Source: Candidatus Latescibacterota bacterium
Lineage (GTDB): Bacteria > Latescibacterota > UBA2968 > GCA-2709665
Length of the DNA: 64,000 nucleotides
Reading direction: 5' to 3'
Assembly (NCBI GenBank): GCA_965219995.1
Contig: CBDCOX010000002.1
Span: 4,160,001-4,224,000 of the forward strand
Shown: in pieces, positions 3,254 to 19,300 of the stretch
Layout: each line of letters starts with the position of its first letter
Position numbering within the stretch: position 1 is the stretch's first letter
The notes under the pieces: model-generated
What the model was told of the DNA's origin: nothing
The model's input: the letters and a program-made list of their open reading frames with translations, nothing else
Databases searched by the model: none
Program-made: the position numbers and the translations under genes

Positions 3254-5560
3254 ATGCAAGCGTTACGGAAGTTCTGGTTGTTGCTGGGCGCCTCAAGAGT
3301 TCGAGCCATTCCCTTTTCCGCGGCCGTGATCCTCAGCCCCCTGTGCAGTCCTGCCTGGGCCGAGCAAGAAGCGGTCGAGACTGCCGCGGTCGTCTCCGCC
3401 AACCCTGACACGGGCTATTCCTCGCAGGAAACAAGGGTGTATGCCCTGCCTGAGTTGGTCGTCTCCGCCGACCCTGATACGGGCTATTCCTTCACCCACA
3501 GCGGCACGGCTCTTGGGGTTCCCATTCCGTTGGAAGACACACCGCAATCCGTTTTGACGATCAAAAGACAGGTACTCGAAGATCAGCTGGCCACCACCCT
3601 TTGGGACGGCCTGAAGAATGTGAGCGGCGTTTTCAGTCGCGGTACGAATTCGGCAGTCTCCGAAGATTTCGTCATTCGCGGCTTCCGGCTGGATCCCAGG
3701 CGTAACTACTACCACAATGGAGTGCCGTACTACAATCGGTTTGCCGCTGAGCCGGGCAATCTCGAACGGGTGGAGGTGCTCAAGGGCCCGGCCTCCATCC
3801 TCTACGGCGCGATCGAGCCGGGGGGGATTATCAACACCATTACGCCCCAACCGTCTACAACCTCCACGCGCCAGTTGCACCTGAGCGCGGGCAGCTATGG
3901 CCACATCAGCCCCCGGTTTTCGGCGTCCGGTCCGCTCGACAGCGAGGGAAGAGTGCTTTACAGGCTGTACGGCTCCCGATTGACGGCGGAGAGTTTTCGC
4001 GATTTCGTTGAGCAGGATCGCTGGTACGTCAACCCTTCCGTCTACTGGGGCTGGTCTCAATCGACAGCGCTGGAACTGAATCTGGAGTTGTTGCGCGACG
4101 AGAGAACGGCCGATGCCGGCATCGTCGCGATCCTGGATCAGCCTGCGTCGGTACCCATCGATCGCTTCTACGGAGACCCGCTCTACAACAAGGAAACCAT
4201 GAGAAACGGCGCGGTCACCCTGCGCGCCACCCGGAACTGGACTCGCAGCCTGACGCACACGTCGGCCCTCAGCCACTACAAGACCACATGGGATCGCGAG
4301 CAGATGTCGGTTGAAGCCATGCGGGGCGGTGTCGTTGGCCTGCCAGGCGGCGCAGGACATCCGGACAGCGACAGCAACCTGCTCAATCGCGCCATTTACG
4401 ACAACGAGATCTTCTATCGCGAGACCACGATGCGTCACGACCTGAGCTACAAGCAGGCGGGGGGTGCTCTTCGGCATACGCTGCTATTAGGCGTGGCACT
4501 CTCCTTCTACAAAGAGCGTGAAGTGCTCGGCGATCGTGTCCATCGAGAAGGTACGCCGGAAGCGGCGAATGCCGACGCGCTGAAGATCGACATCTACGAT
4601 CCGGAGCCGTATTACGGGCTGACCATTCCCCAGGATTTCGCCCTCTTCCGCAACCGCGAGCGCGAAGAGACCAGTTGGGGTATGTATCTGCAAGACCTGG
4701 TGGAACTCGGCGACCAATGGGTTCTGCTGGGGGGCTTGCGCTATGACGGGGTCGATTTCGACGAACGTACGAACCAGCGCGGTTCCTACAGAACCCACGA
4801 CCGCAGTGACGGCAGTCTGAGCCCGCGCCTGGGCGTCGTCTACAAGCCCGGTGGTGGTCTCTCCCTCTACTCCAGCTACAGCCGCTCTTTCAGACCGAAG
4901 TCGGGCGAGAAGATCTTCGATGAACCGGAGGGCGACGCCACACCGATAACTCCCGATATGGTCGTACCGGTCGACCCCGAGTCGGCGGCGCAATTTGAGG
5001 TGGGAGGGCGGTGGACCGATGCCGGCAACCGCCTGAGCGCGACGCTGGCGCTGTACGATCTGGCACGCACCAATGTAGTCGAAACCAATCCCCGCTACCG
5101 CATTTACCGCGTTCAGATCGGGCGCCAGCGCAGCCGGGGTTTCGATCTCGACCTGACCGCGCAGCCGATCCCCCAACTGCGTGCTATCGCCAGCTATGCG
5201 TATGCGGACGCGCGCGTCGAAAGGGATGCTGACCGCCCCGCGTGGGAGGACAACCATCTCGACAATACGCCCGAACACAGCGCCAGTCTGTGGTGCAACT
5301 ACCGCCATACGACTGGCCTGGCCGTGGGACTGGGCGTGATCTATACCGGAGAGCGCCAGGGCAATCTGGACAATGACTTCCTCCTTGACGACTACGTGCG
5401 GGTCGATGCCACCCTCACCTACCGGCTGCAGACCCTGAGAGTGGATCTGAGCGTCAAAAACCTCACCGACGTGGGGTACTACCAGAACGCATGGCGTCGC
5501 GACCGGATCATGCCCGGAACGCCCAGAAACTTTCTGCTGTCATTCGGCTATAGCCTGTGA
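3254..5560 (+). CDS. TonB-dependent siderophore/metallophore receptor
   Basis: RBS AGGAGGAG; plug motifs DTPQSV and ERVEVLKGPASILYG..PGGIIN; C-terminal NLTD..Y...PGTPRNF. Confidence 0.93.
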   Translation: MQALRKFWLLLGASRVRAIPFSAAVILSPLCSPAWAEQEAVETAAVVSANPDTGYSSQETRVYALPELVVSADPDTGYSFTHSGTALGVPIPLEDTPQSVLTIKRQVLEDQLATTLWDGLKNVSGVFSRGTNSAVSEDFVIRGFRLDPRRNYYHNGVPYYNRFAAEPGNLERVEVLKGPASILYGAIEPGGIINTITPQPSTTSTRQLHLSAGSYGHISPRFSASGPLDSEGRVLYRLYGSRLTAESFRDFVEQDRWYVNPSVYWGWSQSTALELNLELLRDERTADAGIVAILDQPASVPIDRFYGDPLYNKETMRNGAVTLRATRNWTRSLTHTSALSHYKTTWDREQMSVEAMRGGVVGLPGGAGHPDSDSNLLNRAIYDNEIFYRETTMRHDLSYKQAGGALRHTLLLGVALSFYKEREVLGDRVHREGTPEAANADALKIDIYDPEPYYGLTIPQDFALFRNREREETSWGMYLQDLVELGDQWVLLGGLRYDGVDFDERTNQRGSYRTHDRSDGSLSPRLGVVYKPGGGLSLYSSYSRSFRPKSGEKIFDEPEGDATPITPDMVVPVDPESAAQFEVGGRWTDAGNRLSATLALYDLARTNVVETNPRYRIYRVQIGRQRSRGFDLDLTAQPIPQLRAIASYAYADARVERDADRPAWEDNHLDNTPEHSASLWCNYRHTTGLAVGLGVIYTGERQGNLDNDFLLDDYVRVDATLTYRLQTLRVDLSVKNLTDVGYYQNAWRRDRIMPGTPRNFLLSFGYSL

Positions 5561-5586
5561 ATGCGTCCCGTGAGGAGACAAAAGCG

Positions 5587-6360
5587 ATGAACGAGAGCAC
5601 GGCCCCGGGCCGCCGACAGGTGAAGGGACGCTACAAGAAAGGGGTTCGCCGCTGGCATGCCTGGACCTCCATCTTCGCACTGGTCTTCACGGTGCTCGTG
5701 TGCGTGACCGCGATCCTGCTGGAGCACCTCAGTGGCTGGGGCCTGAGCAGCGTCGGAGTGCCCAGCCGGTGGTTTCCCGGCTACCAGACCACCGCCAGTC
5801 GCCTGGGACAGATCAAGTGCGCCCTGCTTGCCGGCAATGAGGAGGTGTACATCGGGACGCGAAAAGGGTTGCTTCACCTGAGTGGGAGCGAAACCCGCAG
5901 CGTTCCGCAGTTGGAGGGCCTGGACATCTTCAACATCGACCAACAGGGAGAGCGCATCCTGGTCGGCACGCGGGAAAGCACCTGGCTCTTCGAGGAGGAG
6001 CAGTGGAAGCGCATTTCCAACTTCAGAGGGGCGGCAACCTTTGCAGAAGATGGTCGCATCGTCCACATACAGGGCAGCAACGGCCTCTTCGTCACCGAGG
6101 ACCTGGGCGCGACCTGGACGGAACTGACGGCCGTGAACGCAACCATGGTGGAAGTCCCCCTTCCCGAGGTCGTCAGCTTCAGCAAGTTGGTTCTGGACCT
6201 GCACACCGGCAAAGCCCTCTTCGGCCCCGAGGGTGAGTGGATCTACGTGGACGCGCTGAGCATCGCCGTCCTGGCACTGGCAATAACGGGTTTCATCATC
6301 CGTCCCGCCTATGTGAAGCTGCGCACGTACCGGCGTAAATCCAGAGGGGAACAAGCATGA
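5587..6360 (+). CDS. PepSY-associated TM domain protein
   Basis: RRWHAWTS-TM at the N terminus and LDLHTGK...TM at the C terminus; directly follows the TBDR. Confidence 0.75.
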   Translation: MNESTAPGRRQVKGRYKKGVRRWHAWTSIFALVFTVLVCVTAILLEHLSGWGLSSVGVPSRWFPGYQTTASRLGQIKCALLAGNEEVYIGTRKGLLHLSGSETRSVPQLEGLDIFNIDQQGERILVGTRESTWLFEEEQWKRISNFRGAATFAEDGRIVHIQGSNGLFVTEDLGATWTELTAVNATMVEVPLPEVVSFSKLVLDLHTGKALFGPEGEWIYVDALSIAVLALAITGFIIRPAYVKLRTYRRKSRGEQA

Positions 6361-6547
6361 ACCTTCGCGTTATCCAGCCGGGCGCATGCTCCTTTTTTGG
6401 GATTGCATCGGAAAAGGGCCCGCGGGACGGAAACCTCGAAAGTACGGCGCGCAGGGGCAAGCCTGCGGTTGGACAGCGAGATGGCAGGTTGATCATCTTC
6501 GAGATCCAGTCGGCGGCCAGAGTTGGCAGTCGATGCAGGAGGAGTCA

Positions 6548-6994
6548 ATGAATCAGGTAAACTTCAACGCACGAACCAGGCGACTGCGCTTCGCCGTTCA
6601 GCAGGGTGAAAGCCTGACAATGCGGCGCACCGGGCCGTTGGGACAGATCATCTTTTGTGAAGGATGTTGTTGTGGTCGAGGCGACAGAGGATTCCCGTCA
6701 TTGCCAAAGGAGATGATCAAGGAGCGGTGGAAGAGGCTCAAGCTCAACGGTACAATCCAGCTCACGATCAGTGGATGCCTGGGCCCGTGCGATCTGGCCA
6801 ACGTCGTTTGTTTGCTAACGAGCAATGGAACCGGACAGTGGTTCGGCGGGCTTTCCGAGCATTGGCAATACGAAATATTCATCCAATGGGCCAGCCAGTG
6901 CCACCAGTCGGGTTCTCTTTTGCCGATTCCGGCGACATTAGACCGCCATCGTTTCGCACGCTTTCCTTCCGTTCCGGTTGCCGCTCAAACATGA
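6548..6994 (+). CDS. Cys-rich thioredoxin-like (2Fe-2S) ferredoxin-domain protein
   Basis: RBS GGAGGAG before ATG 6548; CEGCCCG and SGCLGPC motifs. Confidence 0.7.
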   Translation: MNQVNFNARTRRLRFAVQQGESLTMRRTGPLGQIIFCEGCCCGRGDRGFPSLPKEMIKERWKRLKLNGTIQLTISGCLGPCDLANVVCLLTSNGTGQWFGGLSEHWQYEIFIQWASQCHQSGSLLPIPATLDRHRFARFPSVPVAAQT

Positions 6995-7060
6995 AGCTGC
7001 CTGTATTCCAGCCCCGCCTTGTGGACTTGACCAATCCTCAATTCGGCAGGAGAGAAATCA

Positions 7061-8137
7061 ATGGCTGAAATTCAAGACTTGAAAGAACCTGTTCCGGTAA
7101 CGATTATCAGCGGCTTTTTGGGAGCGGGCAAAACCTCCCTGCTCAACCATATTCTCAGCGCCGACCACGGGTTGCGCGTGGCGGTATTGGTCAACGATTT
7201 TGGAGAGATTAACATTGACGCCGCGTTAGTCTCTGGCGTCTCTGGGGAATCCACCATAAACCTTTCCAACGGGTGTATCTGTTGCTCGATTCGCAACGAC
7301 CTGCTTGAGGCAACGGTTCAACTGATTGAATGCCCAAACCCGCCGGAGTATATCGTCGTTGAAACAAGCGGCGTATCTGACCCTGTGGCGGTTTCACTGA
7401 CCTTTTTGGCTACCGAATTGCAGTCTCGGACGCGAGTGGACAGTGTGCTGACCGTGGTAGATGCGGAGCAGATTTACCTGGTGAACGAGGAGCATCGCAG
7501 ACTCGCAATAGACCAGATCACGATGGCAGATGTCCTGGTGCTAAACAAGCTTGACCTGGTCAATGATGAAAAGCGGGAGGAATTGGCGAACTTTGTCAGA
7601 GACCTCGTTCCGGGAGCGCGTATCCTTCAGGCTACATATGGTAAGATTCCGCTCGATCTGGCACTCGGTGTCGGGACATACGACCCCCAGCGCTTTTCGG
7701 GAAAATCGGGTTTGGACGTTCACATTCATGCTGACGGCGAGGCGCAAGAACACGACCATGCCGACCATACGCTTGTTTTCAATACGTGGTGCTATACGAC
7801 TGACAAACCTCTGTCACGTGGGGCCGTGCGTGACGCGGTGAAGAACTTACCCGCGACCATTTACCGCGCCAAAGGGTTTGTTTACCTCTCCGATGTTCCC
7901 GGTCGGAAGGGAATCGTCCACGTTGCCGGCAAACGGGCGCGTCTGATCATGGGTGAGCCGTGGGGCGACGAGAAACCGGGAACACAGTTGGTTTTTATCG
8001 GTGAGGCAGGTGGAATCGACGATTGCGAATTGCAATCGCGCTTTGATGCGTGCCAAACGGAAAAGGATACTCACCAGGACACATCGTTTGATGCGGCTTT
8101 TGAATTGCTTCGGGAGCTTGGGATTACAGCGAAATAA
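7061..8137 (+). CDS. COG0523/CobW-family G3E GTPase (metallochaperone)
   Basis: GFLGAGKT, VNDFGEINID, GCICC, ETSG and NKLD motifs, His-containing linker, CobW_C (RAKG...LVFIG). Confidence 0.93.
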   Translation: MAEIQDLKEPVPVTIISGFLGAGKTSLLNHILSADHGLRVAVLVNDFGEINIDAALVSGVSGESTINLSNGCICCSIRNDLLEATVQLIECPNPPEYIVVETSGVSDPVAVSLTFLATELQSRTRVDSVLTVVDAEQIYLVNEEHRRLAIDQITMADVLVLNKLDLVNDEKREELANFVRDLVPGARILQATYGKIPLDLALGVGTYDPQRFSGKSGLDVHIHADGEAQEHDHADHTLVFNTWCYTTDKPLSRGAVRDAVKNLPATIYRAKGFVYLSDVPGRKGIVHVAGKRARLIMGEPWGDEKPGTQLVFIGEAGGIDDCELQSRFDACQTEKDTHQDTSFDAAFELLRELGITAK

Positions 8138-8292
8138 ACCGAGTATGGCAAGACCGGCAACCAATACACAGATTCAAATGGAATCTTAACTCCATCAGAC
8201 AATTTCCAGCGGTGCGGTGACGCCTTCCCGTAAAAACTCTCATTGACGCGAGAACGTCATCTCCGTTTTTTCTAAGGGACAAGACACCGACG

Positions 8293-8328
8293 ACCCCTTC
8301 CCCCTTCCGTCAGGAAGGGGGAAGGGGT
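8293..8328. repeat. REP-like perfect hairpin (16-bp stem)
   Basis: ACCCCTTCCCCCTTCC-GTCA-GGAAGGGGGAAGGGGT; related hairpin near 62617. Confidence 0.6.
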
Positions 8329-8448
8329 TCTTTCTCGAAGGCGGTGAGGAGGGGAAAGAGACATTGATTCGGTTCCCGCCCGGAACCGGGTTCCAATGAG
8401 CGAGCGGATTGAAGGGGGCCTGGTGTACATTCTGGAGGTTGATATCAG

Positions 8449-9423
8449 ATGAAAGTCTTGTACCTGAACGTACCGAATATGCTGCAGCCGTGGTACGAAG
8501 ATTTCAGGACTGCGGTCGGCGAGGGGCATACGGTCTGCCTGTACGATCCGGCAAAACCCATGGCGCCGCAGTTTCAGGACGTGGAGGTGGTGGTGGACCA
8601 GGGGGGATCGGTGGGCACCCGGGCCCTGATCGACGCCGCGCTTTCAGCGCGCGTGAAGCTGTGGCAGGTGCTGGGCACGGGGGTGGACCACGTGGACGTG
8701 GCGTATTTCCTCGAGAACGGCCTCACGCTTGCCAATACGCCAGGCCTGTTCAGCGCGGTGGCGCTGGCGGAGCACGCGATGTTCCTGATGCTCCATTTCG
8801 CGAAGCGCTTCGACCAGCACGTCCGGAATATCCGGTCGAAGGCGTTTTACTTTCCACTGAGCGAGGAACTGGCGGGAAAGACGCTGGGTCTGGTGGGGCT
8901 GGGCGCGAGCGGGCAGGCGCTCGCGGCCAGGGCGAAGTCGATGGGGATGCGCATTGCGGCCGTCGACGCGGTGGAGATCCCGCGGGAAAAGCTGGACGAC
9001 CTGGGCGTGGAGGTGTTTGCGGCGCCGCCGGAACTTGAAACCGTGCTCGCGCAGGCGGACTACGTGTCGCTGCACGTGCCGCTGACGTCGAAGACGCGGC
9101 ACCTGATCGACCGGCGGGCGCTGGGGGCGATGAAGCCTTCGGCGGTGCTGATCAACGTGGCCAGGGGCGAAATCGCGGATGAGGCCGCGCTGGTCGATGC
9201 GTTGAGGAGCGGGCGCATCCGGGGTGCAGGGCTGGATGTGTTCGCGGAAGAGCCGTTGCCTCCCGACCATCCGTTCCTGCAACTGTCGAACGTGGTGGCC
9301 ACACCGCATACCGCCGGACAGACCTATGGCACGTCGAGGCGGCGAGGGGAGGCTTGCGCGGAGAACGTGGATCGGATCGCGCGGGGGCTGGAACCGCTGT
9401 ACCGGATTACAGGGGTGGGCTGA
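8449..9423 (+). CDS. D-isomer-specific 2-hydroxyacid dehydrogenase
   Basis: GLVGLGASG, HVPLT, LINVARG, GLDVFAEEP and TPHTAG motifs. Confidence 0.93.
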   Translation: MKVLYLNVPNMLQPWYEDFRTAVGEGHTVCLYDPAKPMAPQFQDVEVVVDQGGSVGTRALIDAALSARVKLWQVLGTGVDHVDVAYFLENGLTLANTPGLFSAVALAEHAMFLMLHFAKRFDQHVRNIRSKAFYFPLSEELAGKTLGLVGLGASGQALAARAKSMGMRIAAVDAVEIPREKLDDLGVEVFAAPPELETVLAQADYVSLHVPLTSKTRHLIDRRALGAMKPSAVLINVARGEIADEAALVDALRSGRIRGAGLDVFAEEPLPPDHPFLQLSNVVATPHTAGQTYGTSRRRGEACAENVDRIARGLEPLYRITGVG

Positions 9424-9569
9424 GGTAGGCGAACGGGATGTTTACTCCGGTACCTGACCGTAATCGCAGCCACCCATACCTCCCGGTTTTTATGCAAATG
9501 GACTTGACAAACCCTGGTGCCTTAATGTACTTTTTCGAGAGTTGCACAAATGAAAATTGAGGGGGAAAT

Positions 9570-10070
9570 ATGGCAGGTATCGCCTTTGCACCAACCGTGA
9601 TGGCATTCAATCCGGGTATGTTAAGCGTTGATATTCCTTGGGTTAGCGGGGAGATTAGAGAAAAAGCCGTCATGTCCTTTGTCAAAATTGTAGGTGAGAT
9701 GAACAGGGATACGAAGCGACATACCGCGTTCCTGAAAAACATCTACAATGAGGCGGTTGAGAATCCCGATAGACTAAAGCACCTGATGCCCTACGAAGAT
9801 ATAAACGCGTCCGTCGAGCATCTGGAAGAATCCGAGGAAAAGTTAAAGAAATGTCTGAAGACGTTCGTCCGGATTCTCAATAGCGCCGGGTCCGAAACTG
9901 ACAACAGGAAGGTAGACGCGCTAAGCACGTTGATAGAGTCCATTAAATCGTTGATCGGTGCGTGCCAGGACCTTCGATGGCATGTGATGATTCACGAGGC
10001 TCAGAACGAACCTGCGTCAGGAATCGTCTGTGAGTCGCCGGAGGAATATCTGAAAAAGCTGTGGGAATGA
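9570..10070 (+). CDS. Hypothetical helical protein, probable antitoxin-like
   Basis: RBS GAGGGGG; TTGACA at 9504; C terminus ESPEEYLKKL resembles antitoxin ends; stop overlaps the ATG of a RelE-like remnant. Confidence 0.6.
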   Translation: MAGIAFAPTVMAFNPGMLSVDIPWVSGEIREKAVMSFVKIVGEMNRDTKRHTAFLKNIYNEAVENPDRLKHLMPYEDINASVEHLEESEEKLKKCLKTFVRILNSAGSETDNRKVDALSTLIESIKSLIGACQDLRWHVMIHEAQNEPASGIVCESPEEYLKKLWE

Positions 10071-10238
10071 TGGAATGGCGAACCACCAGCATTTGCCGAT
10101 CAGATTGGAAGAGCCAGGCAGGAGGTTCGTCAGACAAGCCCGCAAGTTGCCATAAAAATCCTCGACGCCGGGATAGGCCGCCTTCTCATTGTCGGGAAAC
10201 ATGATGTCGTTTACGAATCACTGAATCGCTCCAGGTAA
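10067..10238 (+). pseudogene. Frameshifted, internally deleted RelE/ParE/YafQ-like toxin remnant
   Basis: ATGA-coupled MMEWRTT, then a frameshift into AFADQIGRARQEVRQ...RLLIVGKHDVVYESL*, which resembles the RelE-superfamily C-terminal motif. Confidence 0.55.
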
Positions 10239-10419
10239 ACCCCACCCCGAGTTCAACGCTCCGTTGTTGGCAGACGCCCCCTGCGGGACTCCCGATCGTC
10301 GTCCCTGCACGACGGTTGTCCGCTCCGAGCCGATCCCCGATAGAACCCAGCCCCCAGCATTCTGCGAGCATCGCGTCTACGCTACACTGTGGGGCACGTA
10401 CCAACGCAATACTGCACAT

Positions 10420-10448
10420 TTGCACAGTTGCATGCAATGTGTTATATT
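10420..10448 (+). promoter_or_regulatory. Sigma70 promoter of the Ubl operon with overlapping palindromes
   Basis: TTGCAC-N17-TATATT with TGn extension; overlapped by CACATT...AATGTG and TTGCATGCAA palindromes. Confidence 0.55.
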
Positions 10449-10477
10449 AATGTGAGTGTACGTGGCGGGAGCGAAAT

Positions 10478-10729
10478 ATGTCGGAAAAGGAACACGACTA
10501 CATCAAGGAAGCGGCGAGCATGTCGATTCCGGCGACTGCGGTGGATCTGGCATCGAATCGGGCGATTGGTGAGCGCATCACCGAGTTGACACAAGTAATC
10601 GATCCCTATTCATCTGTTATGGACACGATCTTCCGCGCCGGGAGCATCACGCACGCCATTCGACAAATTGGTCATCTGGTTCTGACACCGGAAGGACAGT
10701 GTGTGTTGACCGTACGTGCAGGACACTAG
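10478..10729 (+). CDS. Hypothetical 83-aa protein leading the Ubl operon
   Basis: ORF with GGGAG RBS just after the predicted promoter; no motif recognised. Confidence 0.45.
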   Translation: MSEKEHDYIKEAASMSIPATAVDLASNRAIGERITELTQVIDPYSSVMDTIFRAGSITHAIRQIGHLVLTPEGQCVLTVRAGH

Positions 10730-10773
10730 AAGGCAAAACAGAAACGCAGTTAGAGATATAGGAGGAATTCAAC

Positions 10774-11067
10774 ATGGTGCAAGAACCTGGAAACGGCGAT
10801 GGACCCATCGGACCGACGGGGATCGTAAAGGAACTGACCATCTACATCAATGCTCGGTCGGCGCTGTGGGACAAACCGACCATTAGCTTTGCACAAGTTG
10901 TCGAACAGTGGAACAAAATCGATCCAGATCGACGCGTGATAGGTGATCTTCCGGGCATTGACTGGACGGCGAAGGACGGAACGAAGGGGATTTTCTATCC
11001 GTCCGATAACCCAATGGACGTGGTTGATGAACTGTCGTTCACGATTGACGACTCGTATCTCGCGTAG
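10774..11067 (+). CDS. Multiubiquitin-domain (ubiquitin-like beta-grasp) protein
   Basis: RBS AGGAGG; TIYINAR..W....ISFAQVV and M.V.D..SF.I pattern of the multiubiquitin family; immediately upstream of a ThiF gene. Confidence 0.72.
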   Translation: MVQEPGNGDGPIGPTGIVKELTIYINARSALWDKPTISFAQVVEQWNKIDPDRRVIGDLPGIDWTAKDGTKGIFYPSDNPMDVVDELSFTIDDSYLA

Positions 11068-11075
11068 GGAAGACT

Positions 11076-12212
11076 GTGTCAGAACATGAGTCACGGGCTC
11101 GTTATGAAGCGGAGCGGCGCGAATGGAAAATCGAGCGTCGAGACTTAGAAATAGGTGCATTGGGAGTACCATGTTTTGTCGCACCGAATGTCGCAGGCGA
11201 ATGTCACATCTGGGTAGGGACTGCATCTGACTCGGACCAACTCGAAGCGAACCATGAATGGCAGCAAGGCGCTTTGCACGCGGCCATAATCCGAGGTCTT
11301 TCCGACGGCAGATTGTACGACCGATCTGGCACGGAGTTGACAGATGGGGTAATTGGAAGATCCCCTTCCAGCCTCAGTCTATCGATCAAGCTGACAGGCC
11401 GCGACTATGAGGATGCATGGGAGGCATTAAACAATTACGTCAAGCAGATATACGCGCTGTTCCTTGGCGGATCCGCATCGAGCGGGGAAGCGGCTCCACG
11501 CCCATATACATTCGATGTGCCTGGTGACCATCTGCCGGAAGCAGTCGAGTGGAGGGCTCTGGTAGCTCAAGAGCGTGTGGCGATTGTCGGACTTGGCGGT
11601 GTCGGCGCATGGATAGCAGACTCGGTTGTCAAGGCGGATCCTCGTGAGGTTTATGGTTGGGACTACGACTGCATAGAGCCCAAAAACATACTTCGCATGC
11701 CAGGTGGACTCGATCCGAACGTCTGGATCGGTAGGCCAAAGACCGAGTGGTTCCAAGAGACCTACTCCATAATACACAAGAACGTACATGGCCATAATGT
11801 AAAGGTACTCGCCGAAAACGTCCAAGACGTCGTTGATAGAACCACTTTCGCCTTCGTAGCCGTGGACGATGCGGACGCCCGGATGATGGTATGCGACGCG
11901 CTGGCCAACGCCAGAATCCCGTTCGTCGTGGCAGGACTCTCATTATTGCGTATTGACAAGAGAGTCAAGGTTTCCATGCGGATAGTAACCGCCCATGTCG
12001 GTGTGTCCTCTTGGAGAGAGGCTATCCCTCAAGTTGGCCGGGCGGGACAGGACGACTACGGCAGCCTTGACTTGCCCGACGTCTACTCAATGGCTGCGGG
12101 TTGGGCGATTCAGTCGTGGCGAAAGATGCGCGGCCAATTCTGGCAGGAGAAAAGCGAAGAGTGCCTAGTCTATCGTGCTCGTGAGCAGTCTCTCATATTG
12201 AGAGAGGTCTAA
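11076..12212 (+). CDS. ThiF/E1-like adenylyltransferase with N-terminal DUF6791-like (E2-like) domain
   Basis: VAIVGLGGVG, D.D.IEPKNILR.PG, K.E, FVAVDD..AR and DDYG motifs; N-terminal LSIK...DY.D....L..Y resembles DUF6791. Confidence 0.85.
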   Translation: MSEHESRARYEAERREWKIERRDLEIGALGVPCFVAPNVAGECHIWVGTASDSDQLEANHEWQQGALHAAIIRGLSDGRLYDRSGTELTDGVIGRSPSSLSLSIKLTGRDYEDAWEALNNYVKQIYALFLGGSASSGEAAPRPYTFDVPGDHLPEAVEWRALVAQERVAIVGLGGVGAWIADSVVKADPREVYGWDYDCIEPKNILRMPGGLDPNVWIGRPKTEWFQETYSIIHKNVHGHNVKVLAENVQDVVDRTTFAFVAVDDADARMMVCDALANARIPFVVAGLSLLRIDKRVKVSMRIVTAHVGVSSWREAIPQVGRAGQDDYGSLDLPDVYSMAAGWAIQSWRKMRGQFWQEKSEECLVYRAREQSLILREV

Positions 12213-12288
12213 AGTGTTCTCTTGTAGATGGAGGAAGGCAGGAAAACGTGATTCTCATCCTAACTATGTTTTTAGGAACCGAGAGTCA

Positions 12289-12609
12289 ATGGTACTGAAG
12301 CCAGTGTTTGTTGAAACAATCCCGCAAATACCCGAAATGGAAGAGGGGACGCTTTACGTCAGCATGAGGTTCGCCGTCCTTTCCCACTTTTGTCCATGCG
12401 GGTGTGGTCGTCTAGTCGACGTGACGCTGGATCCTACGACTCGTAGTCTGACCTACGATGGCGAGTATCTGACTTTAGAACCTTCAATCGGGGTCAAGTT
12501 CCCGTGTAGAAGCCATTACTCGATTATTCGGAATGAGATCATCTGGTACCCGCCAATCTCGGAATCGCAAGTCAGTTGGTACAAACGTGTATGGGAGAGA
12601 TGGAGGTAG
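12289..12609 (+). CDS. DUF6527 family protein (putative Ubl peptidase)
   Basis: PVFVETIP..EEGTLYVS, HFCPCGCG and LEPSIG..PCRSHY.I..N.I.W motifs. Confidence 0.85.
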   Translation: MVLKPVFVETIPQIPEMEEGTLYVSMRFAVLSHFCPCGCGRLVDVTLDPTTRSLTYDGEYLTLEPSIGVKFPCRSHYSIIRNEIIWYPPISESQVSWYKRVWERWR

Positions 12610-12707
12610 CCAAGAGTCTCTCTCGCTCTCATTTTCCGCCTGTTATAGTCAGGACTCCGCTGCTCTCGCTTTGTGTCCACTTAGCACCTAAATCCGGTAG
12701 CAAACCT

Positions 12708-13772
12708 ATGTCTCTGAATGAAAACCTGCGAAAAGCCAGGCGGCAAAAGATCGACGAGTTCTACACACAGCTTTCCGACATCGAGAACGAGCTGCGCCAC
12801 TACGCCGGACTCTTCCAAGGCAAGGTCGTATACTGCAATTGCGACGATCCCCGTGTCTCCAACTTTTTCCACTTCTTCTCGTACAACTTCGAGCGCCTGG
12901 GACTGAAGCGACTCATTACCGCCTGCTACAAGAACCAGGAACGCGATCTGTTCAGCCGTCACGATTCGGAGCGGGCGATTTGGCTCGAATACCAGGGGAG
13001 CGCGAAGGGTGCCAGGGAGCCTGACGTTGGGGATATTGGAATTCGTGAGTTTGAAGGAGACGGGGATTTCCGCAGTGCGGAATGCATCGAGCTTCTGAAG
13101 CAAGCGGACATCGTAGTGACCAACCCGCCGTTTTCGCTGTTCCGCGAATACGTCGCCCAACTGGTGCAATACGGCAAGAAGTTCCTGATCATCGGGAGTC
13201 AAAACGCCATCACGTACAAGGAGGTTTTCCCTCTAATCAAGGACAATAAGATGTGGCTTGGTGTCACCCCGAAAGGCCAAGATATGCTATTCGACGTGCC
13301 AGAGGACTACGCGAAGGAACTGGTGGCGACCGCAAAGGAGGGGAGCGCATACAGAGTCGTCGACGGGGTTATCAAAGGTCGGTTGGGTAACGCGGCCTGG
13401 TTCACCAATCTAGACCATAAGAAGCGCCATGAGGAATTGATCCTCTACAAACGCTACTCGCCGGAGGAATACCCGGCCTACGACAATTACAATGCGATCA
13501 ACGTGGACAAGGTCGCGGAGATCCCTATGGATTGGGACGGAGCGATGGGGGTGCCGGTCACGTTTCTGAACAAGCACAATCCAGAGCAGTTTGAGATCAT
13601 CGGGCTAACGGCAAGCGCCGACCGCTACGGCCTGAAAACGAAAAAATACACCGTGGCAGATGCTCCAAACTATAGCTATCTGAATAGCCGAGAAGGGGGG
13701 GTCATGAGGATGGGAAGCCGATATACGAGCACCTATAGGCGCCTTCTGGTTAAGAAAGTCCCGCCGCAATGA
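12708..13772 (+). CDS. Adenine-specific DNA methyltransferase, EcoRI family
   Basis: DEFYTQ, YCNCDDP, GDFRS and VTNPPFSLFRE (motif IV), MGVPVTFL. Confidence 0.92.
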   Translation: MSLNENLRKARRQKIDEFYTQLSDIENELRHYAGLFQGKVVYCNCDDPRVSNFFHFFSYNFERLGLKRLITACYKNQERDLFSRHDSERAIWLEYQGSAKGAREPDVGDIGIREFEGDGDFRSAECIELLKQADIVVTNPPFSLFREYVAQLVQYGKKFLIIGSQNAITYKEVFPLIKDNKMWLGVTPKGQDMLFDVPEDYAKELVATAKEGSAYRVVDGVIKGRLGNAAWFTNLDHKKRHEELILYKRYSPEEYPAYDNYNAINVDKVAEIPMDWDGAMGVPVTFLNKHNPEQFEIIGLTASADRYGLKTKKYTVADAPNYSYLNSREGGVMRMGSRYTSTYRRLLVKKVPPQ

Positions 13773-14863
13773 AAATTGACCTGAACGAGATCACGATCCG
13801 CGACCTTGTGGAGGACTACCATGACGACGGCGAAGGCGGGGTGCGCGGCTATGGCGGCAAGCTCGACATCCGACCGTCGTTTCAGCGCGAGTTCGTCTAC
13901 AGGGACAAGCAGCGCGATGCGGTGATCGAGACGATCAATAAAGGCTTTCCACTCAATGTGATGTATTGGGCCGTGCGCCATGACGGAACGTATGAGGTCA
14001 TCGACGGCCAGCAGCGCACGATCTCTGCGGCGCAGTACGTGGAAGGCGACTACTCCCTTGACGGAAGGTATTTCCACAACCTGCAAGACGACGAGCGGGA
14101 GAAGATTCTCAATTACGAATTGCAGGTTTACGTCTGCGATGGAACCGATAGCGAAAAACTGGCTTGGTTCAGGATCATCAACATTGCAGGGGAGAAGCTG
14201 ACTGACCAGGAGTTGCGGAACGCGGTCTATGCCGGAACGTGGGTGTCCGACGCAAAGCGGCATTTCAGCCGGAAGGGGGCTGCCTGCCCAGCGTATGCGA
14301 TTGGTAGCCGGTATCTGAATGGCAGAGCGGAGCGCCAGGAGTACCTCGAAACAGCCATCCAATGGATCAAGGACGAGGGCCAGACAGTCGAGGACTACAT
14401 GGCCGCCCATCAGCCTGACAAGACCGCAACCGCCTTGTGGAGTCACTTTCAGGCGGTCATCAACCGTGTTAAAGCGGTCTTCCCGAAGTATCGCAAGTTC
14501 ATGAAGGGCGTGGATTGGGGAGGGCTTTACAGGCAACTCAAAGACGAAAGCCTGGATCCGGAAGCGCTTGAAATCGACGTTGCCCGCCTGATGATGGACG
14601 ACGATGTCACAAGGAAGGCGGGCATCTACCCGTATCTCCTCACCGGTGAGGAAAAGCATCTCAACATTCGCGCCTTCTCCAACGCCATGAAGCAGAGGGC
14701 GTTCGAAATGCAAAACGGCGTCTGCAAGTCATGCGGGGAGGCGTTTGAGATATCGGAAATGGAGGCCGACCACATCAAACCTTGGTCGGAGGGCGGCAAG
14801 ACTGACGAACAGAATTGCCAAATGCTTTGCAAGCCGTGCAATCGCAGAAAATCCAATAAATGA
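13769..14863 (+). CDS. DUF262 (ParB/GmrS-like) plus HNH restriction endonuclease
   Basis: FQREFVY, IDGQQR and F..IN motifs; C-terminal CxxC..EADHIKPW..GG.T...NCQMLCKPCN; ATGA-coupled to the MTase. Confidence 0.9.
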   Translation: MKIDLNEITIRDLVEDYHDDGEGGVRGYGGKLDIRPSFQREFVYRDKQRDAVIETINKGFPLNVMYWAVRHDGTYEVIDGQQRTISAAQYVEGDYSLDGRYFHNLQDDEREKILNYELQVYVCDGTDSEKLAWFRIINIAGEKLTDQELRNAVYAGTWVSDAKRHFSRKGAACPAYAIGSRYLNGRAERQEYLETAIQWIKDEGQTVEDYMAAHQPDKTATALWSHFQAVINRVKAVFPKYRKFMKGVDWGGLYRQLKDESLDPEALEIDVARLMMDDDVTRKAGIYPYLLTGEEKHLNIRAFSNAMKQRAFEMQNGVCKSCGEAFEISEMEADHIKPWSEGGKTDEQNCQMLCKPCNRRKSNK

Positions 14864-14948
14864 GCACATTCGGATGGGGCTTATATACTTAACTTGATAC
14901 GCCTATTGTGGACATCAAGGTACGCCTGAATAATACCGATCTGTACCA

Positions 14949-14983
14949 AATAAGGCCCCTCGTGGTGTGTGAGGGGCCTTATT
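14949..14983. terminator. Probable bidirectional terminator between convergent genes
   Basis: AATAAGGCCCCTC-N9-GAGGGGCCTTATT, a 13-bp stem. Confidence 0.6.
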
Positions 14984-15083
14984 CCGGCAGGTCTGGTCGC
15001 GTGGGGTCGCTTACATCTCTCAGGAAGATATCTCATAGCGAAGGGTAAACCATGCTGATCTGCCAAGATATCCGGTCTGTATG

Positions 15084-15587
15084 TCAGTGGATTCTTGCAC
15101 TAATTTTGAATCTCTTGACGACCTCTTTGGTGATTTTGCTGGCGAGGGAACCTTCTGTTCCGAGGCCTTTGAAAGCCCAATCGGTTTTGTAATTGCATGT
15201 CCAGATGATGCCACCAGATCTACTAACCAACTTGACGTCGATATTCATGTTTTTTCCGGTGAACCAGTTGCCGTATCTTCGGATAGAGCCTGTTATCACG
15301 GCGTCTGTCTTGGAGATATCGAATATTTCCTTGGGCGATGGGGTACTTTTCTTGGTGTAGATCTGTGCCGAATCGGAGACCTCGAAAATTCCTAGTTGGA
15401 GCAATGCAGTTACCGTTCTGTTCGAAAGCTCGTTACCCAATCCGGGTTTGTTGCTCTCGAAGGGGATGACGACGATTTCTCTGAGGTCTCGAAGATTTGT
15501 CCGTGGCTTTAGCCATACTGTTCCTTTTGCGCAGCTTGTGGCGAACAGGGCCAGCAGAGCGTATAGCAGGATTCTGGAGCTGTGCAA
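15084..15587 (-). CDS. Lipoprotein, CsgG/LpoB/DUF799-like fold
   Basis: Lipobox FATSC; IVVIPFE and DAVITGSI...VKLV...G.IIW patterns; RBS GGAGG. Confidence 0.65.
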   Translation of the reverse strand: MHSSRILLYALLALFATSCAKGTVWLKPRTNLRDLREIVVIPFESNKPGLGNELSNRTVTALLQLGIFEVSDSAQIYTKKSTPSPKEIFDISKTDAVITGSIRRYGNWFTGKNMNIDVKLVSRSGGIIWTCNYKTDWAFKGLGTEGSLASKITKEVVKRFKISARIH

Positions 15588-16126
15588 TTTGACCTCCTGT
15601 GTTATCCGAATCTGTCTGCATTGTGGGGAATCGTGTGGTGTAAATAGTAAATGTCCCGTGCTCCCGTCAAGGGGTTTGTCAGGCGAGCAGGTCGTTGAAT
15701 TCTACATAAGATCATATATGGACACTCCTCATAGTCTCAACAGCTTGGATTGTGTACCTCAAGCATGTAGCCCCTGAGCTTGACGAAGAGAGGCGAAACG
15801 CTGGCCTTTGGACGGACCGTATCGAGTGGCTCACCGTAAACGACGCATTGAGTCAGCATGTTTCGGCGGCCAGTTACAATCTATGCCCTTTAGGAATATA
15901 ATCTATGTCAACTATTCGCTTTTGTATTGAATAGGATTCGGATAGATTGAGACCGAATTTACTTTGGTAATACCCGTAACGTGAAGATTGCAACGCCTAC
16001 TCGAGGGGAACATGGTCAGGCGTGTTGGCAAGTTCAAAATACGGAATAGATGCAGCGCACCTGAAAAAGCAGTGAAAGAAACCCTGAAAGCCGTGCCGTG
16101 AGCCGCTCCCTGAGCATGCGGTGCCC

Positions 16127-16239
16127 TGAGCTTGTCGAAGGGTCGGCTAAAGGATGTGGAATGGCGCTGGAGATTGCAACATGAGCCCACGCCCGAAACG
16201 GTCGAAGTGAATCCCGCCGCGGGCATTTCGACAAGCTCA
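16127..16239. repeat. REP-like inverted pair TGAGCTTGTCGAA / TTCGACAAGCTCA
   Basis: Perfect 13-bp inverted repeat; a degenerate third copy near 15775. Confidence 0.6.
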
Positions 16240-16323
16240 ATGACCACGCATTGACGTGGTCAGCGGATGGGGACATGATCCCTGTTCCCATTCCAGGTTG
16301 TACCACATTCACAGCGTCGTGAG

Positions 16324-19300
16324 GTGCGTAGATTGACCCGTGAAGTGGAAATTGAACTGGACCGGAAAGACGTTTGGCCCGCGGGGCGCGAATCCACGTT
16401 GCTGGGCGAGCTTGTCCGGATGGAAATTGCGAAGCATATCTGGGACAGCCGCCAGAGTTCCAAGCTGACCGGCTTCGAGTACGCCAAGCGCCGGGGAACG
16501 CGCAACATGATGGATCCCGCGAGACCGCGTCTGGACCGGCCCCGGGGGCGAACGCGTGTCTTCGCGCGCTGGACAGACGAGCTATTGTGGGTCTCCGTCA
16601 AATGCGAAGGGCGCAGCGACGGTGAAGACCGCATCGTCGTGGCGATCGCCCGGGGCGCAGACAGTCTGCTCCAGTTTGAATGTCGTTCCGACGGATCACT
16701 GCGGTTGCCTGATGGAGCGGGAGGGCCGACGTTCGAAGTTGAGCAGAGCCGGAATGGATGGTCGGCGCGCCTGACGGTACCCTGGGCGATGCTCGGCGTA
16801 CGTCCACGGCCCGGGCTGCAACTTCCCGTTAACGTCGCGCGGTTCACGGAATGGACGGACGTGGCTCCGCCCGCGATGTTGCCCGACGGATTCCTGGTCA
16901 ACGGATTCACTCGCATCCGGCCGGGGCTGGAAGTGAGCACCATGAGCCGGGCGGTGAGGTGTCCAACCGTGGGGGACCCGCTTCGGGCCGACAGGCTGGG
17001 CCGCCTGGTGCTGAGCCCGCGGCTGAAAATCGAAAACTTGAGCCTGATCGACGGTGGCCTCACGAAGAAAGAACTCAGATTGGAAATGAACCCGTCGGGG
17101 GCCCCGTCTGAAACGCTCGACGTACGCGTCGCGCTTTGCGATCCGTACGGACGCGAGACGGTATTCGTGGACCGGTCCCTGGGTGAGGGCGAGATGAGGA
17201 TTGGACTGGATTATCTGTTCGGCGCGTTCAGGGGCTTTCTGTATCCATACCGCCTCGCGGTGCAGGTATCCGATCCGGAGACCGGCGCCATTCTGGCGGA
17301 GTCGCAATGCGAGTTCATGCCGCCCCGGCGAGTCCGCCTGGACCCGCTGAGACTGGGCAACGATCAGCGCGGCCGTGGCCGATTCCGGATGGCCGGGGAA
17401 GGCCTGGCAGGTACAGAGTGGCAGGCGACGCTGGTGAACGACGCTGGCGAGGCGCTGGACAGGGGCAGCGTTCTGGCCGAATCGAACGAGGCGACGTTTG
17501 ACGTGGCCATTGGCGAAGTGCCCAGAGGGCGGTACAGGCTGCGGCTGACCCCGATGGGGTCGAACCCGGACTTCCACCTGGAATGCCCCTGTAACGTGAT
17601 GGGTGCGAGGCCCAATCCCCTCGTGCTGCTGGGCCCGGAGGACATCGCCCGTCTGCGAAATCAGGTGAAACAAGGGGGCCTGAAACCCCATTATGAGACG
17701 ATGAAAGCCGGCGTTGACGAGATACTTGAACGGGGTACCATCCTGGAGCGCAGCCTCACGTTCGAGGGGACCGAGATCCGCGAGGTCTCGATCGACGCCC
17801 TGCTCGCCGGAGACGACCTGCTGATGCAGGGTCACCCTGAGGATACGCTGTTTCAGCGGGACCCCCACCAGCTGATGGCCTCGGCGCTCGTGTATCTGAT
17901 CGAACGGGACGACCGGTACGGCCTGCTTGCGGAAAAAATGGTGCGGGTGCTTGTCGACCACGTTCTCTGGGGAGACCCGAGGGTATACGGGGCGGACGCG
18001 GACCTGATGTGGAAGGCGATGTACTGTGCATTGGCAATGGACTGGCTGGGTGACCTCATCGCACCGGATGCGCGCGTGGCGCTCACGGATCGCCTGGTCG
18101 AGAACGGGTTGCTCGTGTACCTTTGGGCGATGGAGAACGATCAGGCCTACTGGAAGGGACGGATCGCGAATCTAACGCCGATATCGGATAGTGTGGCATC
18201 GGCGCTGGCTCTTTGCCTTCGGGACGAAACGGTGGACGGGGACGCGGTGCTTCGAATCGCCAGAGAGGATATCGGAACGCCGGTACGCGCGTTTCCGCCG
18301 GACGGCTCGTGGCCCGAATCCGTCAACTACTGGGCGGTCTTCCTGCGAGGGATCATCCTGCACGGCGCGGCGTTGGAGTCCGTAACAGGTACCGACGACG
18401 GGGTATTCTCGCTGCCAGGCATGAAGGATACCGGGTATTTTCCGATATATTTCACGCCCAGGGGCGTGCCGGCGGGGTTCAACGACGGGATGAATAGCGG
18501 GGCGGCCCCCTTCCTCCACCTGCTGGCGCGACGGTTTGACGAGCCTCTGTTTTCCCTGTATGCCGACGTTTACGGCGGGGAAGGCGAAAACAGACGGTCC
18601 GACTGGTATACGGTCATGTGGCGTTCTCACGATATCCCCTATCAGCCCCCCGCTCCGTGCACTGAGGCGGGCGACAGGCCGGCGCCCCCGGCGTTGGGAT
18701 CGAGGATGACGGGGTTGAAGCGGCTTCAGGTGTACGAGGAGATCCGGTGGGCGGCGCTCTCGTCGGATTGGCCCGATCCGGAACTGTACGTGTCGTTCAA
18801 GAGCGGATACGCCGCGCCCGGTTTCGGCCATACGAGCAGGGACCTGAACGCCATCCAGGTGGTGGCCGGAGGAGAACCGCTGATCCGCCGCAGCCATGAC
18901 TACAGTACGCCGCCGGAGGGATACAGCACCACGCTGATTGACGGCAAGCCGCAGGGTCCCGGAACGGGGACGTTTCTTTATTGGGACGAGGCTGTCAGGC
19001 ACCTCGCGATTGCGGCGGAAGCGGACGGGTCGTTCGGCGAGGAAATCCGAAGGGTCCGGCGCCACATTGTCATGGTGGACGGCCGATACCTGGTTGTGCT
19101 GGACGAAGTGAGGAGTGACAGGCCGGTCCGGGTGACGTTCATGGCGCATACGGCTGGTGAGATCCTCATCGCGGGCCGGGGTTGCGAAATCAGGGGAAAG
19201 AAGACGCGGCTGTCTCTGACGTTCGCGAGATCGGATGTGGCGCCGGGCCGCGTCGCGTCGCCGGAGTGCGTGATGACGCAACTCACCGACGTGGCGCTGC

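Follow-up and report, generated by a model that had tools for sequence, protein, structure and literature searches.

The window analysed here is a stretch of 64,000 nucleotides from Candidatus Latescibacterota bacterium (assembly GCA_965219995.1, contig CBDCOX010000002.1, positions 4,160,001 to 4,224,000 of the forward strand). Its subject is a run of four plus-strand genes at window positions 10478-12609 that probably encodes a diverged ubiquitin-like conjugation system of the Type II bacterial ubiquitination-like (Bub) kind. Open reading frame (ORF) calls give, in order, a leading gene for a protein of 83 residues (10478-10729), a gene for a 97-residue ubiquitin-like protein, or Ubl (10774-11067), a gene with a GTG start for a 378-residue fusion of an E2-like (conjugating) domain to an E1 (activating) domain (11076-12212), and a gene for a 131-residue DUF6527 protein (12214-12609). 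The intergenic gaps between the four ORFs are 44, 8 and 1 nt. Next on the same strand comes an intact pair of methylase and nuclease genes, which brings the total to six co-oriented genes across 10478-14863. A preliminary description of this DNA had reported four co-oriented genes directly before a restriction-modification (RM) pair, and the reading frames bear this out, with the methylase and the nuclease identified by Pfam and PADLOC. The motifs it quoted are likewise present: the DDSYLA end of the Ubl, Ser-x-Lys at residues 103-105 and DDYG at residues 326-329 of the fusion protein, and the Cys, Ser and His residues of the DUF6527 protein.

Type II Bub operons, formerly called 6E.2 or DUF6527 operons, were defined by Ye, Gong, Chambers and Corbett (10.1101/2024.11.21.623953). 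The example given in that preprint is BubA-BubBD-BubE of E. coli ZDHYS365, whose BubA is PDB entry 9cd2. According to the same source, conjugate formation in vitro by E. coli BubBD needs S106 in the E2 domain, R219 in the adenylation domain and Y342 in the crossover loop, the E2 Ser of Type II systems comes with an invariant Lys and His, and BubE, which has a zinc site of four Cys, is a Ser-His peptidase. ATP-dependent oxyester conjugation has been shown solely in the Citrobacter and E. coli systems (10.1101/2024.11.21.623953).

The fusion protein at the window was compared over its full length in hhalign, as a profile of 38 members of its own clade against ten canonical DUF6791-ThiF proteins. 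The match to canonical BubBD has a probability of 100% and E=3.5e-42 over 353 columns, with pairwise identity to canonical fusions of 20-33%. The E1 adenylation domain (11526-12212) matches Pfam ThiF at E=1.5e-12. The N-terminal domain (residues 1 to about 150; 11076-11525), compared alone with the canonical DUF6791 part, still matches at 92.4% and E=5.3e-7 over 106 columns, the two Ser-x-Lys motifs falling in register, which points to an E2-like, DUF6791-related domain. The Ser-x-Lys motif (Ser103, codon 11382-11384; Lys105, codon 11388-11390) and Tyr328 of the DDYG sequence (codon 12057-12059) line up with the Ser-x-Lys and the Tyr of canonical BubBD, both in a mixed alignment of clade and canonical proteins and in hhalign. 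LSIKL had been taken at first for a replacement of the usual motif; Ser-x-Lys is in fact the family's own conserved motif. All 38 clade members retain Ser103, Arg207 (codon 11694-11696), Asp264, Tyr328 and the nucleotide loop G172-G177, and Lys105 and His68 (codon 11277-11279) are conserved in at least 90% of them; His68 is also invariant in the mixed alignment (n=20). Ser103 and Tyr328, put forward in the preliminary description as candidate nucleophiles, thus fall at the positions of S106 and Y342 of canonical BubBD and fit that proposal at the level of alignment. From the invariant nucleotide loop, Arg207, Asp264 and Tyr328, the E1 is predicted to be competent for adenylation. The translation holds no Cys in residues 290-340, where the crossover loop lies.

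The closest PDB sequence match of the E1 is Citrobacter BubCD (E=7e-4 for a single-sequence query, E=3.3e-12 for a profile query); the profile ranks it above TcdA, UBA5, MccB, MoeB and ThiF. PADLOC E1-E2 models match the E1 region weakly (best E=1.9e-7). The top NCBIfam matches are PRK06153 models at E=4.6e-29, far below their own cut-offs and above the ThiF and MoeB models, which are themselves far below their cut-offs (39.5 vs 159 bits, for example). That the E1 matches ThiF, MoeB, TcdA and MccB at all, if at lower scores, and that the Ubl has no Gly-Gly end, would suit a sulfur-carrier pathway of the ThiF/MoeB type or an MccB-like pathway for a ribosomally synthesised and post-translationally modified peptide (RiPP). 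We regard such a pathway as highly improbable, because the nearest structural and family relatives are Bub E1s, the E1, fused to an E2-like domain that has the Ser-x-Lys motif of Bub systems, stands next to a DUF6527 peptidase gene, and the substrate would be a 97-residue BubA homologue rather than a short peptide. Moreover, the ORFs and their Pfam matches reveal no rhodanese, sulfurtransferase, thiamine, molybdopterin or transporter gene in the block formed with the RM pair. A Ubl without a beta-grasp fold, or grouping of the E1 with enzymes of the ThiF, MoeB or RiPP kind, had been named beforehand as evidence that would overturn a Bub assignment; the sequences indicate homology of the Ubl to BubA and an E1 nearest to those of Bub systems.

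The Ubl gene is assigned to the BubA family by profile comparison. A profile of the clade Ubl matches canonical one-domain BubA in hhalign at 96.1% and E=2.9e-9 over 74 columns, and the canonical BubA profile in turn matches the solved E. coli BubA, PDB 9cd2, at E=1.3e-23. When the Ubl profile was run across 80 canonical loci, the ORF directly upstream of BubBD supplied 18 of the 20 top matches. The protein is accordingly predicted to be a single beta-grasp domain, preceded by a Gly/Pro-rich tail that is low in complexity and variable in length: some members carry as many as about 27 extra residues, and L091, a Dehalococcoidia locus discussed below, lacks the tail. In P0333, P0336 and P0343 this tail has grown into Pro/Thr-rich repeats, in proteins of at most 124 residues whose beta-grasp part is about 75-81% identical.

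The C-terminus of the window Ubl is DDSYLA (Ala97, codon 11062-11064), and its final four residues are invariant in 10/10 loci. Relatives of this Ubl end in Ala in 72 of 80 cases and in Ser in four; the other four are shortened or frameshifted fragments. Canonical loci differ. There, the ORF directly upstream of BubBD ends in Ser in 77 of 79 cases, nearly all with a Thr-x-Lys/Arg-Ser tail; one of the 80 loci has no upstream ORF because of a contig end, and the two non-Ser ORFs, of L072 and L078, and probably also the ORF picked at L070, look like calls in the wrong frame. A second set of 29 loci, sister locus L091 included, has Ser ends in 27 of 28 ORFs at the Ubl position; L100 lacks an upstream ORF, and at L103 the E1 is truncated and the ORF doubtful. 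Together the two sets give Ser ends for 104/107 ORFs, and PDB 9cd2 is also Ser-ended, in agreement with the earlier mention of a usual Ser end. This Ser end is a regularity seen in the present survey and not a criterion of the authors of the family; no discussion of the C-terminal residue of Type II Ubls was found in the main text of their preprint (10.1101/2024.11.21.623953). The L091 Ubl has a tail pattern like that of the window, yet ends in Ser. In hhalign, the Ubl tail beyond the last aligned strand is equal in length to the canonical BubA tail, so the native Ubl end is probably reactive with no processing assumed. The proposal of an Ala-terminated or processed Ubl is therefore retained for the Ala end; the processing is not needed.

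The 131-residue protein matches Pfam DUF6527 at E=9.4e-17. Its residues Cys60, Cys62, Cys64 and Cys98 would form the zinc site, and Ser91 (codon 12484-12486) and His101 (codon 12514-12516) the catalytic dyad; all six are invariant in 14/14 BubE proteins, taken from canonical loci and from both the window clade and its sister. We infer a BubE-like Ser-His peptidase. The fusion protein, the Ubl and the BubE-like protein thus each match their canonical Type II counterparts by profile comparison, and the Bub-type layout suggested from the gene order alone stands.

Taken together, these genes would act as follows. The 97-residue Ubl would be made with its reactive Ala97 end already free. The E1 domain would adenylate the Ubl C-terminus by way of the G172-G177 loop, Arg207 and Asp264, after which the Ubl could move as an oxyester onto Tyr328 of the crossover loop and then, again as an oxyester, onto Ser103 of the E2-like domain, helped by Lys105 and His68. 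The last transfer would place the Ubl on a target lysine, and the zinc-stabilised Ser91-His101 peptidase may take it off its targets again. The leading gene would be a clade-specific regulator that has lost its C-terminal domain in this genome and is degenerating, and the Bub genes and the Type II RM pair, as a block of about 4.6 kb, would serve defence.

Several observations weigh against this reading. No Pfam model, DUF6791 included, matches the N-terminal 150-155 residues or so of the fusion protein at E<=1. The DUF6791 label of the preliminary description thus finds no confirmation in Pfam; the profile-profile comparison does link the domain to DUF6791. The Pfam match of the Ubl to Multi_ubiq (E=3.9e-4) scores 21 bits against a cut-off of 24.5 bits and covers residues 22-49 only. 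The beta-grasp and E2 folds are both predicted from profile homology only. The His partner of Ser103 is uncertain, because MAFFT matches His68 to the canonical His and hhalign chooses His60. Two cysteines, Cys33 and Cys363, both outside the crossover loop, are invariant in the 38 clade sequences, and a thioester route therefore stays possible from the sequence. The leading gene is degenerate in the window, so regulation at this locus may differ from that in the rest of the clade. The regulatory role itself is a guess from a residue pattern judged by eye and from leads in the Atlas that score below 0.8 and count as leads only. Finally, no Bub operon tested protected E. coli from phage, according to the Discussion of the preprint (10.1101/2024.11.21.623953).

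The position of the fusion protein among its relatives was examined in a library clustered at 50% identity, where the window protein matches 10 proteins at E<=1e-30 and 306 at E<=1e-10. Among the matches listed at E<=1e-10, most are about 390 residues long with 22-37% identity, and a clear DUF6791 match was found in two of the ten of these relatives that were scanned. A quick maximum-likelihood tree was built from 75 fusion proteins, with support from the Shimodaira-Hasegawa-like approximate likelihood ratio test (SH-aLRT) and a midpoint root for drawing only. It divides into two groups with SH-aLRT support of 100 each, a canonical group of 51 rows and another of 24 rows. The window clade makes up 17 of those 24 rows; its stem, 1.03 changes per column long, has support 100, in agreement with the distinct subtype proposed in the preliminary description. 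Its sister is the single Dehalococcoidia locus L091 (support 92), which was reached through the sister-clade protein P0124; this protein has a weak DUF6791 match at E=2.2e-4. A deep sister group comprises P0130, P0133, P0134, P0163, P0206 and P0208; in single-protein scans the operons of P0130 and P0163 were not found in genome contigs, nor that of P0130 in metagenome contigs.

What is new here, as judged from sequence, is a deep clade of predicted Type II Bub operons whose Ubl is Ala-ended and whose E2 domain escapes the Pfam models, with a leading gene specific to the clade and a block joined to an RM pair. The literature found on DUF6527 or Bub operons consists of the 2024 Bub preprints, and the operon list in their Table S1 may already include members of the clade. 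A search that starts from Pfam DUF6791 overlooks this deep branch of operons entirely; one with DUF6527 still recovers it.

A canonical Type II Bub operon occurs in the same genome, on another stretch (G000:C2, about 85-88 kb; locus L123, in which positions 4442-10789 correspond to about 85000-91000). It encodes a Ser-ended BubA (Multi_ubiq, E=1.2e-14), a 394-residue DUF6791-ThiF fusion (DUF6791, E=5.7e-57, plus ThiF) and a 129-residue DUF6527 protein (E=9.3e-23). Upstream lies a divergent pair of genes with HTH_3 and Peptidase_M78 (IrrE-like) domains; regulators that combine a helix-turn-helix (HTH) protein with an M78 peptidase are named CapH and CapP in the preprint (10.1101/2024.11.21.623953). 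A DUF2188 gene, an N6_Mtase-Methylase_S fusion and an IS21 IstB gene are found nearby. The two systems are paralogous; between them, the fusion proteins share 24% identity and the BubE proteins 42%, and the Ubls have no similarity detectable by BLAST. Such low identity fits two non-cross-reacting Bub pathways in one cell, as we infer for this genome from the sequences.

The product of the leading gene is one of a family of 86 proteins, most of them 132-147 residues long (about 138), with a homologue upstream of the Ubl in all nine of the full clade loci. The preliminary description had called its 83-residue product an orphan; it is instead a truncated member of this family, and about 55 C-terminal residues are missing from the copies in the window and in L008, another locus from Latescibacterota. 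The C-terminal domain of the form of about 138 residues carries conserved Trp, His and Cys residues. Within residues of about 97-117 (as in P0350), a stretch absent from the window copy, this domain opens with a Trp-His-Trp motif, and its conserved His and Cys could bind metal. The window protein deviates at 18 of 49 positions conserved at 90% or more, and that of L008 at 13, against 1.2 on average and 6 at most among 30 full-length members over the same positions. The ratio of nonsynonymous to synonymous substitution rates (dN/dS) is 0.29-0.60 for seven pairs that include the window copy, against a median of 0.215 (28 pairs). Given the truncation, the mismatches at conserved positions and the raised dN/dS, the window gene appears to be under relaxed constraint; it is a degenerate, fast-evolving copy.

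The same signs of erosion could be read as those of a decaying, inactive remnant of the whole locus in this genome. We think that quite improbable, since the Ubl, fusion, peptidase, methylase and nuclease genes are all full length and keep every family-invariant residue, and the Ubls of the window and L008 share 95% identity.

The leading-gene family has no match in Pfam (where 33 members were also searched at E<=10), PHROGs, NCBIfam or PADLOC, or in a PDB profile search. By eye, the N-terminal part of the protein shows a strand-helix-helix pattern like that of ribbon-helix-helix repressors, and leads from the Atlas, scoring 0.75-0.79, include clusters with ribbon-helix-helix families and, for residues 90-139, small unnamed proteins. 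Only two ribbon-helix-helix proteins were found across the genomes of 21 relatives, too few for a profile comparison. A likeness over 21 residues to an N-terminal motif of the Hsp90 co-chaperone Aha1 (PDB 1usv) is not significant (E=0.3) and was set aside. We give about even chances that the leading gene encodes a small DNA-binding regulator of the operon.

The sequence in front of the leading gene bears on the same question. A promoter-like site of the sigma-70 type (10419-10448, plus strand; TTGCAC, 17 nt, TATATT, with TG in front) lies about 30 nt upstream of the gene and matches the consensus at 9/12 positions plus the TG. Three such sites were seen in the region vs 4.5 +/- 2.4 expected from shuffles, so their count is not above chance. 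In the alignment of nine loci, both hexamers fall on some of the few invariant columns. The promoter of the preliminary description is a putative one, with conserved hexamers but a pattern no commoner than expected. No Rfam match was found in window 9000-16500 at E<=0.1.

A second role for the leading protein, as part of the pathway itself (an adaptor, an E3-like specificity factor, a Ubl target or a sensor), is a tentative possibility. Its linkage to the clade is strict, with 9/9 loci having it, and it was not found in the 80 canonical loci (best match E=0.52); Pfam, PHROGs, NCBIfam and PDB give no match to a DNA-binding family, and the possible metal ligands of the C-terminal domain would suit such a role. 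However, the core genes are conserved in the window and in L008 despite the lost C-terminal domain and the 13-18 deviations over 49 positions, and core genes that stay conserved during erosion of the leading gene are easier to reconcile with a dispensable regulator than with an essential enzyme component. The gene is also the first of the operon, directly behind the conserved promoter, and the canonical operon of the same genome has its HTH and M78 peptidase regulators at the matching upstream place. A regulator thus stays our preferred role for the leading gene. In the sister locus L091 (Dehalococcoidia; 1779-2624), its place is taken by an unrelated ORF of 281 residues without a Pfam match.

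Downstream of the peptidase gene lies the RM pair. The EcoRI-type N6-adenine DNA methyltransferase (12708-13772, plus strand) matches Pfam EcoRI_methylase at E=1.5e-133 over profile positions 1-344 of 345 and PADLOC MTase_II at E=1e-117; its ORF opens at 12576, and 12708 is the likely start, judged by its L001, L008 and L009 homologues. Its restriction partner is a DUF262 (GmrSD_N)-HNH nuclease (13769-14863, plus strand), with matches to GmrSD_N at E=7.4e-19, to HNH at E=1.4e-15 and to PADLOC REase_II at E=2.2e-139 over the full length (1-372 of 372). Neither Pfam nor PADLOC reports a JAB domain in any of the six block genes.

Comparison with blastn against L001, L008 and L009 delimits a shared plus-strand block of about 4.57 kb from the promoter through the nuclease (10307-14875). 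The match of L008 to window 10319-14875 is 85.8% identical over 4575 nt; that of L001 (Rhodothermales), made up of three pieces at 72-85%, spans 10307-14868, and that of L009 covers 10625-14875 at about 84%. The flanks differ between the window and the aligned loci, and the L008 block occupies the same chromosomal place as that of the window. No repeats of 9 nt or more were found around the block. A similar RM pair follows the cassette in four loci, those of the window, L001, L008 and L009. By these alignments, the four genes and the RM pair are one small mobile block that has recently moved between phyla. G+C content is 0.52-0.55 across 10-15 kb vs about 0.62 in the surroundings, and drops to 0.47 at 15001-16000. 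ORFs of about 166 residues lie on both sides of the block (9570-10070, plus strand; 15084-15587, minus strand), where L008 has other genes; neither has a family match in Pfam, PHROGs or NCBIfam.

E1 identity among clade loci is 77-89% across at least six phyla, and all nine of the full loci have the complete set of four genes. The labels of the metagenome-assembled genomes that carry the clade are Latescibacterota, Rhodothermales, Vicinamibacterales, Acidobacteria, Gemmatimonadetes, Pseudomonadales and Arenicellales. In a search of 40 relatives, the clade fusion was found in two of 15 genomes of the genus, its own included, and in none of 26 beyond it. Viral contigs hold no close copy, with one weak match at 20% identity, and neither do plasmids, where all 110 records are below 60% identity and none covers 80% of the query. 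Sampled words of window 10400-14900 occur in public sponge metagenome runs with shares of 0.25-0.68 (four runs, two studies), which is a lead only; no RNA run was among the sequencing runs that matched this interval. At other clade loci the cassette stands beside a NotI-like RM system (L003, 6649-8542), a ThsB-type TIR gene and a PvuII RM system (L005, 6607-7155 and 8125-10081), a DUF6119 gene (L007, 6646-8307) or a large ATPase gene (L004). The neighbour varies, yet is usually a known or candidate defence gene.

The defence island of the preliminary description fits these neighbours, with the RM pair here and RM, ThsB-TIR and DUF6119 genes at other clade loci. Because the block is joined to an RM pair and has recently moved between phyla, defence is the most likely function, and from this context we would expect it to be directed against phages or other mobile DNA. 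The same conjugation machinery might instead serve a stress response or housekeeping, with the RM pair as a mere co-resident of a variable region. This would suit the failure of Bub operons to protect against phage, mentioned above; the authors of the Bub preprint leave stress-response roles open (10.1101/2024.11.21.623953), and a companion preprint agrees. The window, moreover, contains no phage gene, integrase or tRNA. We nevertheless consider such a role unlikely. The cassette and its RM pair align as one block in three other genomes, different RM systems accompany it in L003 and L005, and ThsB-TIR or DUF6119 genes do so at two loci. Its distribution, patchy within the genus and nearly identical across phyla, is a pattern usual for mobile defence genes. 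Defence by a diverged Type II Bub system thus stays the favoured explanation of the block.

A bolder version would make the clade a third, orthogonal Bub type in which its own fusion protein alone charges the Ala-ended Ubl, the protein of about 138 residues, with its C-terminal domain perhaps binding metal, acts as sensor or specificity factor and not simply as a repressor, and the pathway is coupled to the RM pair. We hold this to be doubtful. Were it true, the nuclease, the methylase or an anti-restriction protein of the invader might be tagged, and the two systems of this genome might answer different triggers.

The picture of Bub systems is not overturned by this clade, which offers clean handles on specificity, orthogonality and function. 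To our knowledge, Bub pathways are the sole ubiquitin-like systems proposed to work without catalytic cysteines. With its Ala end, in place of Ser or Gly, the Ubl can reveal the demands that the E1 and the Ser-His peptidase make on the activated or scissile residue. The presence of two very different Bub systems in one genome permits a direct test of orthogonality, and the leading protein is available in full and in naturally truncated forms. The 4.6-kb block of Bub and RM genes, almost unchanged across phyla, suggests a functional link to restriction that can be tested.

Of the systems with which the locus can be compared, the ThiF, MoeB, TcdA and MccB adenylyltransferases share its Rossmann-type adenylation domain; they lack a fused E2-like domain, a Ubl of the BubA family and a DUF6527 partner, and they score below the Bub E1. 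The cysteine-based bacterial E1/E2 conjugation systems also occur in defence contexts, and among them Cap2 is likewise an E2-E1 fusion. They use catalytic cysteines and JAB peptidases according to the preprint (10.1101/2024.11.21.623953), whereas the window has neither a JAB gene nor a Cys in the crossover loop.

Type I Bub (6E.1), represented by BubAB-BubCD-BubE of Citrobacter (PDB 9ea4, 9ea5 and 9eav), provides the closest solved E1 and has a DUF6527 peptidase as well, together with the same proposed Tyr/Ser oxyester chemistry. As described in the preprint, its E2 carries a fused Ubl and its E1 a fused JAB peptidase, cleavage is needed to expose a C-terminal Gly, and the E2 Ser is paired with His and Asp; none of these features applies to the window operon.

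Type II Bub is the nearest of the known systems. The clade differs from it in the tail motif of the Ubl, with an Ala end in place of canonical Thr-Asp-Lys-Ser, and in having the leading gene where the preprint names CapW or CapH and CapP as regulators. At its N-terminus the clade BubE is extended by about 25 residues of basic character, and it has no long C-terminal linker; the E2 domain is missed by Pfam DUF6791, in a fusion protein that falls in a separate deep group. In other respects the two agree. The order of Ubl, E2-E1 fusion and DUF6527 genes, with no JAB/JAMM peptidase, is that described for Type II. The fusion proteins, of 378 and about 390 residues, align over their full length, and share the E2 Ser-x-Lys and His, the adenylation Arg and a crossover-loop Tyr without Cys. 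Finally, the BubE proteins have in common the four-Cys zinc site and the Ser-His dyad, and the Ubls appear homologous along the whole beta-grasp domain, with tails of equal length.

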